This document shows positions 30,422-41,900 of a DNA stretch of 64,000 bases, piece by piece. Position 1 is the stretch's first letter, and every line of letters starts with the position of its first letter. A program made the position numbers and the translations under genes. The stretch lies in NCBI GenBank assembly GCA_963798165.1, contig CAWCSE010000003.1, positions 178,014-242,013 on the forward strand, given 5' to 3'. Origin of the DNA: an uncultured Solirubrobacterales bacterium (GTDB lineage: Bacteria; Actinomycetota; Thermoleophilia; Solirubrobacterales; 70-9). A model generated the notes under the pieces. The model worked only from the letters and a program-made list of their open reading frames with translations. It had not been told where the DNA came from and searched no databases.

Positions 30422-30495
30422 TGCCCCGAGCTGGATTCGAACCAGCGGCCTACTCCTTAGGAGGGAGTCGCTCTATCCAGCTGAGCTATCGGGGC
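30422..30495 (-). tRNA. tRNA-Arg (anticodon CCT), intact, no encoded CCA
   Basis: Reverse complement folds by hand as GCCCCGA-TA-GCTC-AGCTGGATA-GAGC-G-ACTCC-CTCCTAA-GGAGT-AGGCC-GCTGG-TTCGAAT-CCAGC-TCGGGGC-A. All four stems are Watson-Crick. Anticodon CCT. Confidence 0.9.
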
Positions 30496-30646
30496 GCGTG
30501 GGCAGAATACCGCTCTAGCAAGCGGGTTCTGGGAGGTCGGTGATCGGCGGGATGAGCGACCTCATTGGGCAATATTCGGCTCCAGTGACTTTTAGTGACC
30601 AAAAGGGGTTGGAAATGGGCCCGAACAGGGCAGGACCAACGACCTA
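30496..30646. repeat. right arm (tRNA-upstream arm) copy 1 with two AGTGAC repeats
   Basis: GCGTGGGCAGAATACCGCTCTAGCAAGCGGGTTCTGG...TCCAGTGACTTTTAGTGACCAAAAGG...GGGCCCGAAC. Homologous to 34368-34512, 41124-41250 and 41774-41900. Confidence 0.8.
30504..30509 (-). promoter_or_regulatory. -10-like hexamer TATTCT, 8 nt upstream of tRNA-Arg +1
   Basis: Read on the minus strand. The same position holds TAATCT (34376-34381 and the copy near 41132), GAATCT (near 36285) and TATTCT (near 41782) in the four partial copies. Confidence 0.4.
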
Positions 30647-30702
30647 GGTTCTGGCCATAGCTCCTACTCAGCCGGTCCAGGCCAAAGCGAGATACTTAGG
30701 CG

Positions 30703-31096
30703 ATGTCGCAAAAGAACGTGGACGTAGTCCGAGCGGCCTTCGACGGCTGGCTTCGGGGTGATCCGGCAACGCTCGAGCTGATTGACCTGATGTCGTTTAG
30801 TGCCGGGCCCAGGGATGCTGGGTGGCGGCATCTACCGTGGCCACGAGGGCGTGGTCCAGTGGTGGGTCGATTGGCGGCGCGAGTGGACGGACTACGAGAT
30901 CGAGGTCGTACGGCTGGAGGACGTTGGTGATCGAGTATTCACTGCGGAGCGCAGCCAGGCGAAGGGCAAACGCAGTGGAGCCTCCGTGAACTTCGAGACC
31001 TATTCCGTCTGGACCCTGCGGGACGGGAGAATCGTTCGCTGGCAGGGCTATGAGAGTGAGACAGAGGCCCTCGAAGCCGCTGGGCTGTCGGAGTAG
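30703..31096 (+). pseudogene. NTF2/SnoaL-like cassette A, frameshifted
   Basis: N-terminus MSQKNVDVVRAAFDGWLRGDPATLELIDL in one frame. GGIYRGHEGVVQWW...RDGRIVRWQGYESETEALEAAGLSE follows in another frame, with the shift near 30791-30810. Preceded by an L1 leader. Confidence 0.75.
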
Positions 31097-31164
31097 ATCG
31101 GTTCTGGCCGTGAAATAACTCCTACTCAGTCGGTTCAGGGCCAAAGCGAAATACTGCGTGAGCG

Positions 31165-31569
31165 ATGTCGGAGGAGAACGTGGAGCTTGTGGGGCGCATG
31201 ATCGAAGCGTTCAACCAAGGCAGCGTTGACGGCATCCGACCGTTTCTCCACCCCGAGATCGAATGGCACGAGGATCCATCGTTCCCGGAAGCAGGGGTCT
31301 ATCGCGGCGTTGAAGCATTCGAGGAGTACTCGCGGCAGTTTCTCGCAGAGTTCTCTGACATCCGTTACGAGGCTCGGGAGACTGTCGAGATCGGTGACGA
31401 CGTGATTGCCAACATGCAGATTCGGGGACGGGGGAAGACAAGCGGAGCAGCGTTCGAGCTCTCAGCTTGGTGGGCGATCACGTTCCAAGACCATCGGATG
31501 ATCCGTTGCTTTGCTTACCTCGACCGGGATCGGGCTCTGAAAGCCATCGGAGCCGACGGCTCCGAGTAG
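31165..31569 (+). CDS. NTF2/SnoaL-like cassette B (intact, 134 aa)
   Basis: MSEENVELVGRMIEAFNQG...YRGVEAFEEY...RGRGKTSGAAFE...LDRDRALKAIGADGSE. Has its own L1 leader (31097-31164). Confidence 0.75.
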   Translation: MSEENVELVGRMIEAFNQGSVDGIRPFLHPEIEWHEDPSFPEAGVYRGVEAFEEYSRQFLAEFSDIRYEARETVEIGDDVIANMQIRGRGKTSGAAFELSAWWAITFQDHRMIRCFAYLDRDRALKAIGADGSE

Positions 31570-31647
31570 ACCAGTAGGCAGCGTTCTGGCCGTTTCATAG
31601 CTCCTACTTAGCTAGCTCACGGCCAAAAGCGAGATACTGCGTAGACG

Positions 31648-31710
31648 ATGTCGGAGGAGAACGTCAAGACTCTGATTAGCGCCTCGAAGGCCGCGAGTTC
31701 TGCGGCTACG
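31648..31710 (+). pseudogene. NTF2/SnoaL-like cassette C, 5' fragment only
   Basis: An L1 leader followed by ATG TCG GAG GAG AAC GTC AAG (MSEENVK). The family sequence then breaks off and runs into an L2-type leader. Confidence 0.6.
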
Positions 31711-31820
31711 GTCAAGGATGAGTCCCTCCCGTTTATCTGTGAATGGGTGGAGACTGTGGCACTGGCGCCCCCGACGGTCGAGCGAGATACTGGATGGCAA
31801 AGAGCGATACTCAGTGGGCG

Positions 31821-32234
31821 ATGGACTACGAAGAAAAGCTGACGGTCGTTCGCCAGTCCTACGAAGCGTTCAGCCGCAATGATATTGAAGCGCTTCTCTC
31901 TGTCTACGCCCCAGATTGCGAGTGGCTTATGTCGAACTTCGCAGGCTGGCCCGAGAAGCAGCTCTACGTAGGCCGACAGGGTCTCGCCGAGTTCTTCGAA
32001 ACCTGGTTTGAGCCCTGGGAGGACTTCTACGTAGAGATCAGAGAAACGATCGACCTGCCGGGTGATCGCTGCCTTGTGATCGGGGACGCCCATGGGCACG
32101 GCCGACTCAGCGGCGTCGCAGTTGATTTGCCGCCCCTCGCCCAGATCGTCGACTTCCGTGATGGACAGCTTCTGCGTGTCGATAACTATTCGGATGTCGA
32201 AGCGGGCCGAAGAGCCGCCGGGCCGTCGGAGTAG
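31821..32234 (+). CDS. NTF2/SnoaL-like cassette C' (intact, 137 aa)
   Basis: MDYEEKLTVVRQSYEAFSRNDIEALLSVYAPDCEW...YVGRQGLAEFF...GHGRLSGVAV...RDGQLLRVDNYSDVEAGRRAAGPSE. Preceded by an L2 leader. Confidence 0.7.
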   Translation: MDYEEKLTVVRQSYEAFSRNDIEALLSVYAPDCEWLMSNFAGWPEKQLYVGRQGLAEFFETWFEPWEDFYVEIRETIDLPGDRCLVIGDAHGHGRLSGVAVDLPPLAQIVDFRDGQLLRVDNYSDVEAGRRAAGPSE

Positions 32235-32353
32235 CTGCTCGGTCACGCCGCGACCTCGATTACCGGCAAAGCGAGTCCCTCCCGTTTATCGGTGAATGGG
32301 TGGCGGCGCTGGCACTGGCGGTCCCGACGGCCGAGCGAGATACTGGACGGGCG

Positions 32354-40389: not shown

Positions 40390-40464
40390 GCCAATAGACA
40401 GCGTTCTGGCCGCCGCGTAGCCCCACCCAGCCGGTTCAGGCCAAAGCGAGATACTGCACAGACG

Positions 40465-40851
40465 ATGTCGAAGGAGAACGTGGAAATCGCTCGCCGCGCC
40501 TACGCGGCCTTCAACCGGCGCGACTTCGACGCTGCCCTGGAGTCTTTTGATCCCGGTGTCGAGTGGCACCAGATAACGCAGTTCCCCGATCGAAGCGTCT
40601 ATCGCGGACTTGACGACATGAGAGACCGCTTCTGGAACCGACAGCTGGTCGAGCAGTTCGGGGATTTCAGGATCGACGTTGAGGAGTTCGTTGACGCTGG
40701 TGATCACGTCGTGATGATCGGGCACATCGTCGCCCACGGAAGCGGCAGTGGGGTGCCGATCCGTCAGCGGGTCGTCAACATCCTGGAGTTGCGCGACGGG
40801 AAGACCATTCGCGCATACGACGTTGCTGGGCCGAGCGAGAGCGAGAGTTAG
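40465..40851 (+). CDS. NTF2/SnoaL-like cassette Q (intact, 128 aa; divergent C-terminus)
   Basis: MSKENVEIARRAYAAFNRRDFDAALESFDPGVEWHQ...YRGLDDMRDRF...AHGSGSGVPIRQRVVNILELRDGKTIRAYDVAGPSESES. L1 leader at 40390-40464. Confidence 0.75.
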   Translation: MSKENVEIARRAYAAFNRRDFDAALESFDPGVEWHQITQFPDRSVYRGLDDMRDRFWNRQLVEQFGDFRIDVEEFVDAGDHVVMIGHIVAHGSGSGVPIRQRVVNILELRDGKTIRAYDVAGPSESES

Positions 40852-40954
40852 GCCGAAGTAACCGACGTCCATCCTGGGATCTCGATCCGCTCGTCGGCGT
40901 CAGCCACCACGCCGTTGTCAGCGAGGCGTCGGCGATCATCCTGACTACTTCCCT

Positions 40955-41250
40955 CTCCCGTCGGGCACTAGTGACCAAATCGCACCCAATCGGCCCATAT
41001 CCGATTGGCATCTCGATCTCGGGCTAGCTCGCAACCCCGCTCACATAGCCAGATAGCTCGCCCAGCTGACCACCTCCACACCGCTTAGGAGGGAGTCGCT
41101 CTATCCAGCTGAGCTATCGGGGCGCGTGGGCAGATTATCGCTCTGGCAAGCCGATTCCTGGAAATCGCCAATCGGCGGATCGGCGATCTCATCGGGCAGT
41201 TTTCGGCTCCAGTGACTACTAGTGACCAATGGGGGGCGGAACCGGGGTCT
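40955..41250. repeat. attP-like composite junction 4: left arm + tRNA-Arg 5' half (41084-41123) + right arm
   Basis: GGGCACTAGTGACCAAATCGCACCC...CTGACCACCTCCACACCG, then an identical 40-nt core, then GCGTGGGCAGATTATCGCTCTGGCAAGCCGATT...TCCAGTGACTACTAGTGACCAATGGGG. Confidence 0.8.
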
Positions 41251-41290
41251 TGGCGCGAGTCAGGAGCCGATGCAGCTGGCCGGCCGGGTC

Positions 41291-41569
41291 CTAGGCCCTG
41301 CGTCGTGCCCGAAGCTCTCGCTGGCGTTGCCGCTCCGCTTTGAGCCGAGTCGTCTTCTGGCCTTCCCATACGTGGAGGGCAACGACGGCTAGCACGATGA
41401 TGACCGCGAAAACGCCAAGCGGGCGCGGGAGCAACGTCATCGCGCCTATTGCGAGCGGTAGTCCGACGAACAGGCTGATAAGCAGATCGCGGCCGGGACC
41501 GCCGTACTGCTTGAAAACTGCTCGCCGGATCGGAGTGCTGCGCTCGGCCATCGGGAATGCAATCGACAA
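41291..41569 (-). CDS. small membrane protein (2 TM, basic C-terminal tail), hypothetical
   Basis: 92 aa. LLISLFVGLPLAIGAMTLL and GVFAVIIVLAVVALHVW, followed by KAERQRQRELRARRRA. It is the only ORF of module 4. Confidence 0.4.
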   Translation of the reverse strand: MSIAFPMAERSTPIRRAVFKQYGGPGRDLLISLFVGLPLAIGAMTLLPRPLGVFAVIIVLAVVALHVWEGQKTTRLKAERQRQRELRARRRA

Positions 41570-41608
41570 AACGTCCCGCTGGCCTTAGAGCCGCATTCAA
41601 GAACTTCG

Positions 41609-41634
41609 CCAGGGCGCAGAGAAAGCGCCCCTGG
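41609..41634. terminator. GC-rich hairpin CCAGGGCGC-AGAGAAA-GCGCCCCTGG (terminator-like, no clear U-tract)
   Basis: 9-bp stem with one bulge, read directly. It lies about 140 nt downstream (minus sense) of tRNA-half copy 5 and its promoter. Confidence 0.25.
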
Positions 41635-41639
41635 TTAGG

Positions 41640-41900
41640 AGATCCGGTGCAGAATCCCGGAACGGGTATCTGAAATCGGGCTAACCTCGCCGCCTGGCGG
41701 GGTGGCCAGATGGAGTCTCGGTCTACACCGCTGCCGTCAGGGGAGTCGCTCTATCCAGCTGAGCTATCGGGGCCTGGGAGCAGAATACCGCTCTGGTAAG
41801 CCGATTCCGAGAGGTCGCCGATCGGTGGGATGAGCCATCTCATCGAGCAAATCTCGGCTCCAGTGACTCTTAGTGACCAAGGGAGGGCGGAAAGAGGCCC
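41640..41900. repeat. junction 5: diverged left arm + shortened tRNA-Arg 5' part (41741-41773) + right arm
   Basis: GGGAGTCGCTCTATCCAGCTGAGCTATCGGGGC equals tRNA nt 1-33. The anticodon-loop part is replaced by GCCGTCA. The left arm keeps GAGATCCGGTGC, GCCAGATGG and ACACCGCT islands. The right arm has TCCAGTGACTCTTAGTGACCAAGGGAGG. Confidence 0.7.

Follow-up and report, generated by a model that had tools for sequence, protein, structure and literature searches.

Integration at a tRNA gene that replaces the 5′ half and promoter of the target, instead of its 3′ end, is rarely described. In the Islander collection, 159 of 3919 islands carry a 5′ fragment of the tRNA gene (tDNA), and there are just four tandem arrays of three or more islands, an integrase being required in each member (PMC4383910); an element on the 5′ side of a tRNA gene was described by Zhao and Williams in 2002 (J Bacteriol 184:859), according to its citation in PMC6563490. 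The cis-mobilizable elements (CIMEs) of the ICESt1/ICESt3 family in Streptococcus thermophilus have kept attL and attR and lost their integration genes, lie in tandem with related elements at one target, and are thought to be moved by the integrase of a relative (PMC5704250). Here, we analyse a 64-kb window (64 000 nucleotides of contig CAWCSE010000003.1, from an uncultured Solirubrobacterales bacterium) in which a tRNA-Arg(CCT) gene is followed by four further copies of its own 5′ half, and conclude that four non-autonomous integrative cassettes have probably been inserted in tandem at the anticodon loop of this tRNA. Accretion of non-autonomous members at tRNA sites is known, and the reversed polarity is rare, yet precedented; a preliminary description of this stretch was right to call the 5′ polarity unusual, but with 5′-side islands on record it is not unprecedented.

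Like the 5′-side islands, the element has the 5′ part of the tRNA, with the displaced fragment upstream of the rebuilt gene, and we infer that recombination by a tyrosine integrase is centred on the anticodon loop here as it is there. Unlike these islands, the window contains a four-fold stack with an integrase in none of its members, cassettes at this kind of locus go down to 0.6–0.9 kb, and the integrase open reading frame (ORF) of relatives abuts or overlaps nt 1 of the tRNA. The window modules resemble CIMEs in being flanked by attachment (att)-like sites without integration or transfer genes. CIMEs, however, use the 3′ end of the target gene and are decayed conjugative elements of tens of kb, whereas here the polarity is reversed, no conjugation genes were seen in the window modules, and many cassettes look purpose-built, with a two-gene cargo and a minimal promoter.

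ARAGORN finds a single tRNA in the window, tRNA-Arg(CCT) on the minus strand, which Rfam confirms at 71.6 bits with no other match. The 40-nt core is the reverse complement of tRNA nt 1–40 and ends one base past the anticodon loop; exact 40-mers start at 30456 (within the tRNA), 34328, 36238 and 41084, and none of 100 shuffles gives a match. Beyond the intact gene there are thus three perfect core copies and one copy of 33 nt, exact from 41741, in which the anticodon-loop portion is replaced by other sequence and whose end is probably no longer recombinable. A regular-expression scan of the junction block, allowing up to four mismatches, returned these five copies and no more. The distances between successive cores (3872, 1910, 4846 and 650 nt) agree with the modules of 3.8, 1.9, 4.8 and 0.6 kb in the preliminary description, and the intact tRNA, its three identical copies and the 33-nt copy are likewise as reported there. 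One intact tRNA gene and four co-oriented 5′ fragments bound the modules, the boundary in each case being the 40-nt tRNA half:

30422–30495 (−): intact tRNA-Arg(CCT), of which nt 1–40 (30456–30495) are core copy 1 (ARAGORN, Rfam, exact 40-mer search)
30496–30640 (−): right arm 1, the tRNA-upstream region (alignments, motif positions +89/+99)
30496–34327 (+): cassette 1 (3.8 kb), seven SnoaL_2-like genes or pseudogenes and a type-A left arm
34328–34367 (−): core copy 2, tRNA nt 1–40, 100% identical
34368–36237 (+): cassette 2 (1.9 kb), decayed SnoaL-like genes and both arms
36238–36277 (−): core copy 3, tRNA nt 1–40, 100% identical
36278–41083 (+): cassette 3 (4.8 kb), gene for a 296-aa protein and eight or nine SnoaL_2-like genes
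41084–41123 (−): core copy 4, tRNA nt 1–40, 100% identical
41124–41740 (+): cassette 4 (0.6 kb), right-arm AGTGAC pair at 41211–41219 and 41221–41229, diverged left arm without a repeat
41741–41773 (−): core copy 5, tRNA nt 1–33 only, the loop (putative crossover) part replaced
41774–41915 (−): right arm 5, AGTGAC pair at 41862–41870 and 41872–41880

Self-BLAST and a five-block alignment of the window copies give 78–89% identity for the arms and 100% for the core, a distribution that would not be expected if a duplication had decayed neutrally. Conservation of the right arm (the tRNA-upstream region) extends over 150–270 nt in copies 1, 2, 4 and 5, and copy 3 resembles the others for ∼75 nt only, so that the region is not kept in every copy as had been claimed. 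The left arm is conserved for ∼150 nt in copies 2–4 (up to ∼370 nt between copies 2 and 3), longer than the ∼110 nt first given; in copy 5 it is diverged, as noted earlier, and has no repeat. A −10 element (TATTCT or TAATCT) is kept in every window copy, many relatives having TACGAT. AGTGAC is not enriched window-wide (16 sites observed versus 19.8 expected), yet 11 of the 16 sites fall at equivalent positions of the blocks: copies 1, 2, 4 and 5 have a pair at +89/+99 (counted from tRNA nt 1), and the left arms of copies 2, 3 and 4 a single site near −114. The two AGTGAC repeats ascribed to every right arm are therefore present in all but copy 3, which has TGTGCCCAT/GCTGCCCAT (GCTGCCC class) at +89/+99 instead, and the third repeat ascribed to the left arms of copies 2–4 is present in each of them. 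The repeat forms contrast as GCTGCCCA(A/T) versus AGTGACCAA.

Right arm 1 has a −10-like TATTCT at 30504–30509 (−), a hairpin at 30510–30525, and the repeat pair AGTGACTTT (30584–30592) and AGTGACCAA (30594–30602), and the left arm of cassette 1 (∼34180–34327) has AGTGACCAA at 34213–34221. In cassette 2, the right-arm AGTGAC pair lies at 34455–34463 and 34464–34472, and the left arm (∼36090–36237) has its repeat at 36122–36130. Cassette 3 has TGTGCCCAT at 36366–36374 and GCTGCCCAT at 36376–36384 on the right, and a type-A left arm (∼40941–41083) with its repeat at 40970–40978. Its two arms thus belong to different repeat classes, and its first gene has a relative in a cassette of the related locus L009 that has the same kind of right arm; together, these features suggest that cassette 3 is a fusion of two cassettes. 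The function of the 296-aa protein of cassette 3 (36523–37413) was not recognised.

To place the window among its relatives, one genome per species was scanned with a pattern made of the left-arm end and the tRNA half, which excludes intact tRNAs. The scan gave 11 loci in nine metagenome-assembled genomes of Solirubrobacterales and Conexibacteraceae, and a scan of metagenomes gave 78 soil contigs (loci are numbered L001 onwards); the junction was found in none of the viral contigs of IMG/VR, and phage and plasmid BLAST searches with the junction block returned generic tRNA-like matches only. The 90 sequences hold 153 copies of the 5′ half, of which ∼35 are intact tRNAs and the remainder fragments. 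Nearly all fragments are broken at one nucleotide (...G|CTTAGGAGG), where they join at least four unrelated left-arm families, the match to the tRNA stopping, in almost all of them, one base 3′ of the anticodon loop. Over nt 1–48, 34 intact tRNAs differ solely by C16T in one gene, and their T arm shows at least four compensated variants. This pattern would fit a shared, exchangeable 5′ half, for which it is weak evidence because T stems vary anyway and the 5′ half had served to select the loci.

Pfam scans of ∼70 ORFs, covering the modules and flanks of the window and of L001–L011, detected no recombinase, and no recombinase domain was found in the ORFs scanned between 25.9 and 49 kb of the window. 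The first impression from these scans, that the arrays are integrase-free throughout, was ruled out by phmmer searches of the six-frame translations of all loci, seeded with the tyrosine integrases of L5, VWB, lambda and HP1 and the serine integrase of phiC31. The L5 and VWB seeds revealed a family of ∼400-aa tyrosine integrases with the motifs R...HxLR...Y and the Pfam domains PF00589 and, at the N-terminus, the SAM-like PF14659, whereas the phiC31 seed was unmatched in every locus. The family is represented in 12 of the junction-selected loci, and where the intact tRNA lies on the same contig the integrase gene is immediately upstream and co-directional. A profile of the family was built from its members in L041, L070, L021, L052, L028, L018 and L080. 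An integrase next to the att site was found in L018, L028, L041, L070, L073 and L096–L098; in the window no integrase stands at this place. The stop codon of the integrase abuts tRNA nt 1 in L041, and in L070 the ORF enters the tRNA and ends at a TAA in the anticodon loop. Three database members of the family were chosen independently of the junction (89, 74 and 64% identity); all three abut or overlap a tRNA-Arg(CCT) gene, and two of the three have displaced 5′ halves, 4.7 and 7.9 kb upstream. The protein database holds at least 1194 family members at E ≤ 1e-20. The statement in the preliminary description that no integrase is encoded thus holds within the window and fails for its relatives, which encode a dedicated tyrosine integrase directly upstream of the same tRNA; of the two routes that the description had left open, growth by another mechanism or mobilisation in trans, the latter is therefore favoured.

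Degenerate and absent integrases also occur among the relatives. An integrase pseudogene adjoins the displaced fragment in L079, the integrases of L031 and L073 are frameshifted, L005 has a distal integrase fragment, and in ∼25 of 31 loci the cassette adjoining the intact tRNA has no integrase. The integrase ORFs include L041 4243–5481, L070 2207–3448, L096 10001–11242 and L097 10001–11308, and in relatives the ORF either stops at tRNA nt 1 or extends 10–40 nt into the tRNA gene. Another feature of these elements is a GGCTC-N4-GAGCC hairpin, 13 nt upstream of the tRNA, with TTTTC after it.

The core and arm layout is common to the window and the integrase-bearing elements. The latter have a direct-repeat pair at +88/+98, inside the 3′ coding sequence of the integrase (...ALDWAAMGS...), and one further repeat in their own left arm, at about −105 to −119; for most of them the pair is GCTGCCCAT/GCTGCCCAA, and L018 has TGTGCCC. 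The AGTGAC motifs of the window occupy the matching positions, and the type-A cassettes of L001, L005, L009, L011 and L040 retain AGTGACCAA at the repeat positions in arms that are otherwise variable. The repeats covary between the two arms, by class as follows:

AGTGACC class: both arms match in 5/5 cassettes
TGTGCCC class: both arms match in 1/1 cassettes
TCTGCCC class: both arms match in 1/1 cassettes
GCTGCCC class: both arms match in 2/4 cassettes, the other two without a detectable left site

Such coordinated change at three sites would be expected from one DNA-binding specificity per element, and provides the strongest support for the attP interpretation; the earlier suggestion of attP-like junctions with repeats at about ±100 nt is borne out to this extent. 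The right arm of copy 3, itself of the GCTGCCC class, is homologous to the integrase 3′ ends of relatives, but only to +115, which fits an integrase-deleted derivative that has retained the cis-acting part.

The anatomy of the array, the link between integrase and tRNA, the fixed breakpoint, the covariation of the arms and the variation between genomes were observed directly. For the steps proposed below we draw on what is known of lambda-type tyrosine integrases and of integration at tRNA sites (the classes of Williams 2002), and the crossover in or beside the anticodon loop, as well as the role of the repeats as arm-binding sites of the integrase, are inferred. Each cassette would bring a complete attP-like site, to which the P arm contributes one arm-type repeat (about −114), tRNA nt 1–40 the core, and the P′ arm the −10 promoter, the hairpin and a pair of arm-type repeats (+89/+99). 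Strand exchange by a tyrosine integrase between this site and the tRNA gene would take place within or next to the 7-nt anticodon loop, upon which the cassette-borne 5′ half and promoter would rebuild a working tRNA and the earlier 5′ half and promoter would be pushed outward. Repeated integration would yield a stack with the newest member adjoining the tRNA and copy 5 as the oldest, now locked. The present 5′ half and promoter of the tRNA would accordingly have been supplied by cassette 1, and right arm 5 would be the promoter region displaced by the first integration. The window cassettes would be integrase-less derivatives that retain only the cis-acting 150 + 40 + 115 nt, and on the favoured reading they would be mobilised in trans at present.

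The chromosomal neighbourhood of the array is delimited by conserved flanks:

28656–29426 (−): left flank, Methyltransf_11 gene, syntenic on the tRNA 3′ side in relatives
44422–49014 (−): right flank, gene for a 233-aa protein, a conserved hypothetical of ∼220 aa (ORF 45110–46000), Band_7 and NfeD

The Methyltransf_11 gene on the tRNA 3′ side is common to the window, L001 and L011, and more than 30 related loci have the ∼220-aa gene, Band_7 and NfeD on the far side of their arrays. When the locus was also sampled through the ∼220-aa gene, independently of the junction, L099 was found to be 87% identical to the window at the nucleotide level over 6.9 kb of flank, and to have an intact tRNA-Arg(CCT) and 7.6 kb of different genes; in L099 and L101, both with the tRNA present, any displaced half or junction motif is absent. 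Between these flanks the number of fragments per locus ranges from zero to at least four and the cargo differs. The comparison with related genomes that had been proposed, for an empty site or a different module number, thus gave positive results, and module content and order differ as well at the same locus. In comparisons of the window with L001, L004 and L005, the non-coding junction blocks are 78–94% identical and the flanking housekeeping genes 66–72%. Cassettes clustered at ≥88% nucleotide identity recur at different array positions and with different neighbours, and their order is permuted, L034 reading tRNA-C0-C1 and L080 C1-C0, while in L070 C0 follows the integrase-bearing element.

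Cassettes of 0.8–0.95 kb are the commonest (38 of 65 cassettes measure 780–1100 nt). They hold two-gene toxin-antitoxin-like modules: HEPN with a nucleotidyltransferase, DUF2204/DUF6036 nucleotidyltransferases, or an aspartyl protease with DUF5678. The right arms of the 0.85-kb cassettes are not derived from the integrase gene. Other cargo in relatives comprises SnoaL arrays, cytochromes c, beta-propeller/PKD and PD40 proteins, transglycosylases, a helix-turn-helix (HTH) protein, AAA_14/DUF4143, cupin, RNase H, and an AAA ATPase with an S8 protease. The locus may be a small defence and toxin-antitoxin island in these soil bacteria. An integrase-bearing element in L028 (2051–5655, −) carries a defence-like pair of AAA ATPase and S8 subtilase, and an HTH-HipA pair and a group II intron reverse transcriptase (L098 11365–12931 and 15873–17255) lie just past the tRNA 3′ end, outside the integrase element.

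As in integrons, small recombinase-less cassettes form arrays beside a fixed site, their order is shuffled between genomes, and toxin-antitoxin-like and unknown small genes are the cargo. Unlike integrons, the site is a double-stranded attP-like block with arm repeats and a tRNA half rather than a folded attC, the integrase is of the lambda-like, tRNA-targeting kind and is itself on a cassette-like mobile element, and each cassette brings the tRNA promoter where integrons use a common Pc. In the window, no integrase adjoins the tRNA and the cassette ends are tRNA halves with arm repeats; the features that define integrons, attC and an integrase of the IntI type at a fixed attI, are absent. A possibility that we advance tentatively, and hold to be somewhat less probable than its negation, is an integron-like capture system of the Solirubrobacterales, in which a lambda-type integrase, whose gene adjoins the 5′ end of tRNA-Arg(CCT), takes up, excises and rearranges cassettes without a recombinase from a common pool. 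If so, the pool would comprise two-gene toxin-antitoxin-like modules, SnoaL arrays and secreted proteins, every cassette would bring the tRNA 5′ half with a minimal promoter, this part of a host tRNA gene would be mobile and exchangeable, and the arm-repeat classes would define separate cassette–integrase specificity groups. The integrases of phage Mx8 (intP) and of the SSV type have attP inside the integrase gene. In a similar manner, the integrase ORF of some relatives enters the tRNA half and the P′ repeats lie within its coding sequence, but the extent of overlap varies, L041 and L098 having an ORF that abuts the tRNA, and the integrase gene is not split on integration. In the tycheposons of Prochlorococcus, as outlined in bioRxiv 10.1101/2020.12.28.424599, successive tRNA-linked integrations likewise push older elements outward and leave islands with partial tRNAs and fragmented integrases; these belong to a different host phylum and, in that outline, their cargo rides on integrase-bearing elements, not on integrase-less cassettes with complete att sites. 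The dusA-associated integrases are comparable in that an integrase family is dedicated to the 5′ end of one gene and accompanies diverse islands, although the target is protein-coding, the hosts are Proteobacteria and cassette stacks are not described (PMC4482086). A literature search found no published description of the present system in Solirubrobacterales.

The system is abundant in a lineage rich in uncultured soil bacteria, with the database relatives of the integrase counted above and ∼100 arrays recovered, and accounts for orphan tRNA halves and hypervariable islands at the tRNA-Arg(CCT) locus. With its three-site covariation, at least four classes, integrase-less cassettes of 0.6–0.9 kb and differences in order, it is a natural system for the evolution of arm-site specificity and lends itself to testing whether a cassette economy like that of integrons can be run by lambda-type integrases. 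Integrases with a defined 40-nt tRNA target could also be candidates for genome engineering of high-G+C Actinobacteria.

Several observations weigh against an array of cassettes that move in trans. A search of all six frames of the 64 kb with a hidden Markov model of the integrase family, with filters off and E ≤ 50, detected no integrase or remnant, and the window is thus without either over its full length. An integrase of the AGTGACC class was found neither in any locus nor among the 120 closest database relatives, whose C-termini were read for the expected motif ...W-S-L-K-V-T..., and the cognate enzyme of the window's own cassettes is therefore hypothetical. In relatives, the P′ repeat pair is missing from most 0.85-kb cassettes; the mixed arm classes of cassette 3 would not make it a clean substrate; and RecA recombination between the identical 40-nt cores could add, remove or reorder cassettes. 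The lack of remnants also counts against in-situ decay, according to which each module was once complete with its own integrase, later deleted, and the array is a fossil without movement in trans. This course is described exactly by the accretion model with CIMEs (PMC5704250), integrase pseudogenes and fragments occur in the related arrays of L079, L031, L073 and L005, and the right arm of copy 3 shows homology with the final ∼115 nt of integrase genes; some steps of the array probably went this way. As an account of the whole it is nevertheless unlikely: besides the missing remnants in the window, the cores are perfect and the arm repeats retained at three or four junctions, the tRNA-adjoining cassette is integrase-less in most loci, cassette order is permuted between genomes, and the right arms of the 0.85-kb cassettes have an origin other than the integrase gene.

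One ancient integration that left a tRNA-half repeat, followed by growth and reshuffling of the array through unequal crossing-over without any site-specific recombinase, would find adequate RecA substrates in the 40-nt perfect repeats and their 80–90% identical arms (∼290 nt), such exchange can alter cassette number, and modules 1 and 3 have SnoaL paralogues in common (95% over 146 nt; 77% over 479 nt). Homologous recombination or segmental duplication of this sort is nonetheless improbable given arms that are 11–22% diverged around 100% identical cores, two arm-repeat classes within one array, unrelated left-arm families joined at the identical nucleotide in many genomes, and the existence of a linked integrase family. 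We regard as more improbable still a role of the copies at the RNA level, in which promoter-driven transcripts of the 5′ tRNA half pair with the inverted copy in the left arm and act as terminator, insulator or small RNA. The −10 element of every copy, the pairing of the inverted type-A copy with the fragment in minimum-free-energy folds, and the small minus-strand ORFs downstream of fragments are in line with it; however, the fold z-scores are not significant, Rfam matches only the tRNA, the −10 element is accounted for because the rebuilt tRNA must be transcribed from it, and both the covariation of the arm repeats and the integrase linkage are left unexplained. Collapse or expansion of the repeats during assembly has nothing specific in its favour beyond the general capacity of repeats to mislead assemblers, and since the copies have distinct diverged arms and unique cargo and ∼100 independent assemblies show the same architecture, its probability is negligible.

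The type-A left arms (34253–34327, 36165–36237 and 41010–41083) contain an imperfect inverted copy of the tRNA 5′ half, CCCCGCTCACAGAGCCAGATAGCTCG, which forms a long imperfect palindrome with the neighbouring fragment; the commonest left arm in the metagenomes has an analogous inverted GCGACTCCTCC. The inverted copy may serve as additional core sites or as a terminator, or have neither role. When the tRNA half was folded together with the left arm, the result was hairpins with z-scores of −1.8 to +0.7, none of them significant. Small hydrophobic ORFs lie on the minus strand downstream of displaced halves at 35888–36010 (40 aa, a possible membrane ORF) and 41291–41569 (92 aa); neither has a Pfam match, and both could be read from the displaced tRNA promoters.

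The array differs from its surroundings in composition, with a G+C content of 0.60–0.64 from 30.5 to ∼44 kb (0.65 in the 42–44 kb bin) versus ∼0.70 around it. Its 18 SnoaL_2-like segments, ∼12 of them full-length and six truncated or frameshifted, are all on the plus strand and all within 30806–40839, with none elsewhere in the window. They lie in near-contiguous tandem, many just 3 nt apart (TAG GCG ATG), and share the ends MSEENVEIVRR... and ...EALEAAGLSE; upstream of several stands AGCGAGATACTG-N9-GATG, resembling a −10 element for leaderless or near-leaderless transcripts. An exact-protein search with one SnoaL protein of the window returned no record. SnoaL cassettes are also present in the arrays of L002, L005, L010 and L096.

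On the 3′ side of the tRNA, the window has hemerythrin-domain and CopD-like genes (29483–30333, −) that separate the Methyltransf_11 gene from the tRNA. Just ∼60 nt separate these two in L099, the closest relative, and the window therefore also has an insertion of ∼1 kb at this side. Beyond copy 5, no DNA similar to window 41955–44400 was found in L099 or L054, and the G+C content is ∼0.65; this segment may be a further decayed cassette. It includes a PD40-repeat gene (42305–43729, −) with internal 77-nt repeats at 42549–43174, the neighbours of which within the segment have no Pfam match, and the arrays of L009 and L011 carry PD40 proteins among their cargo.

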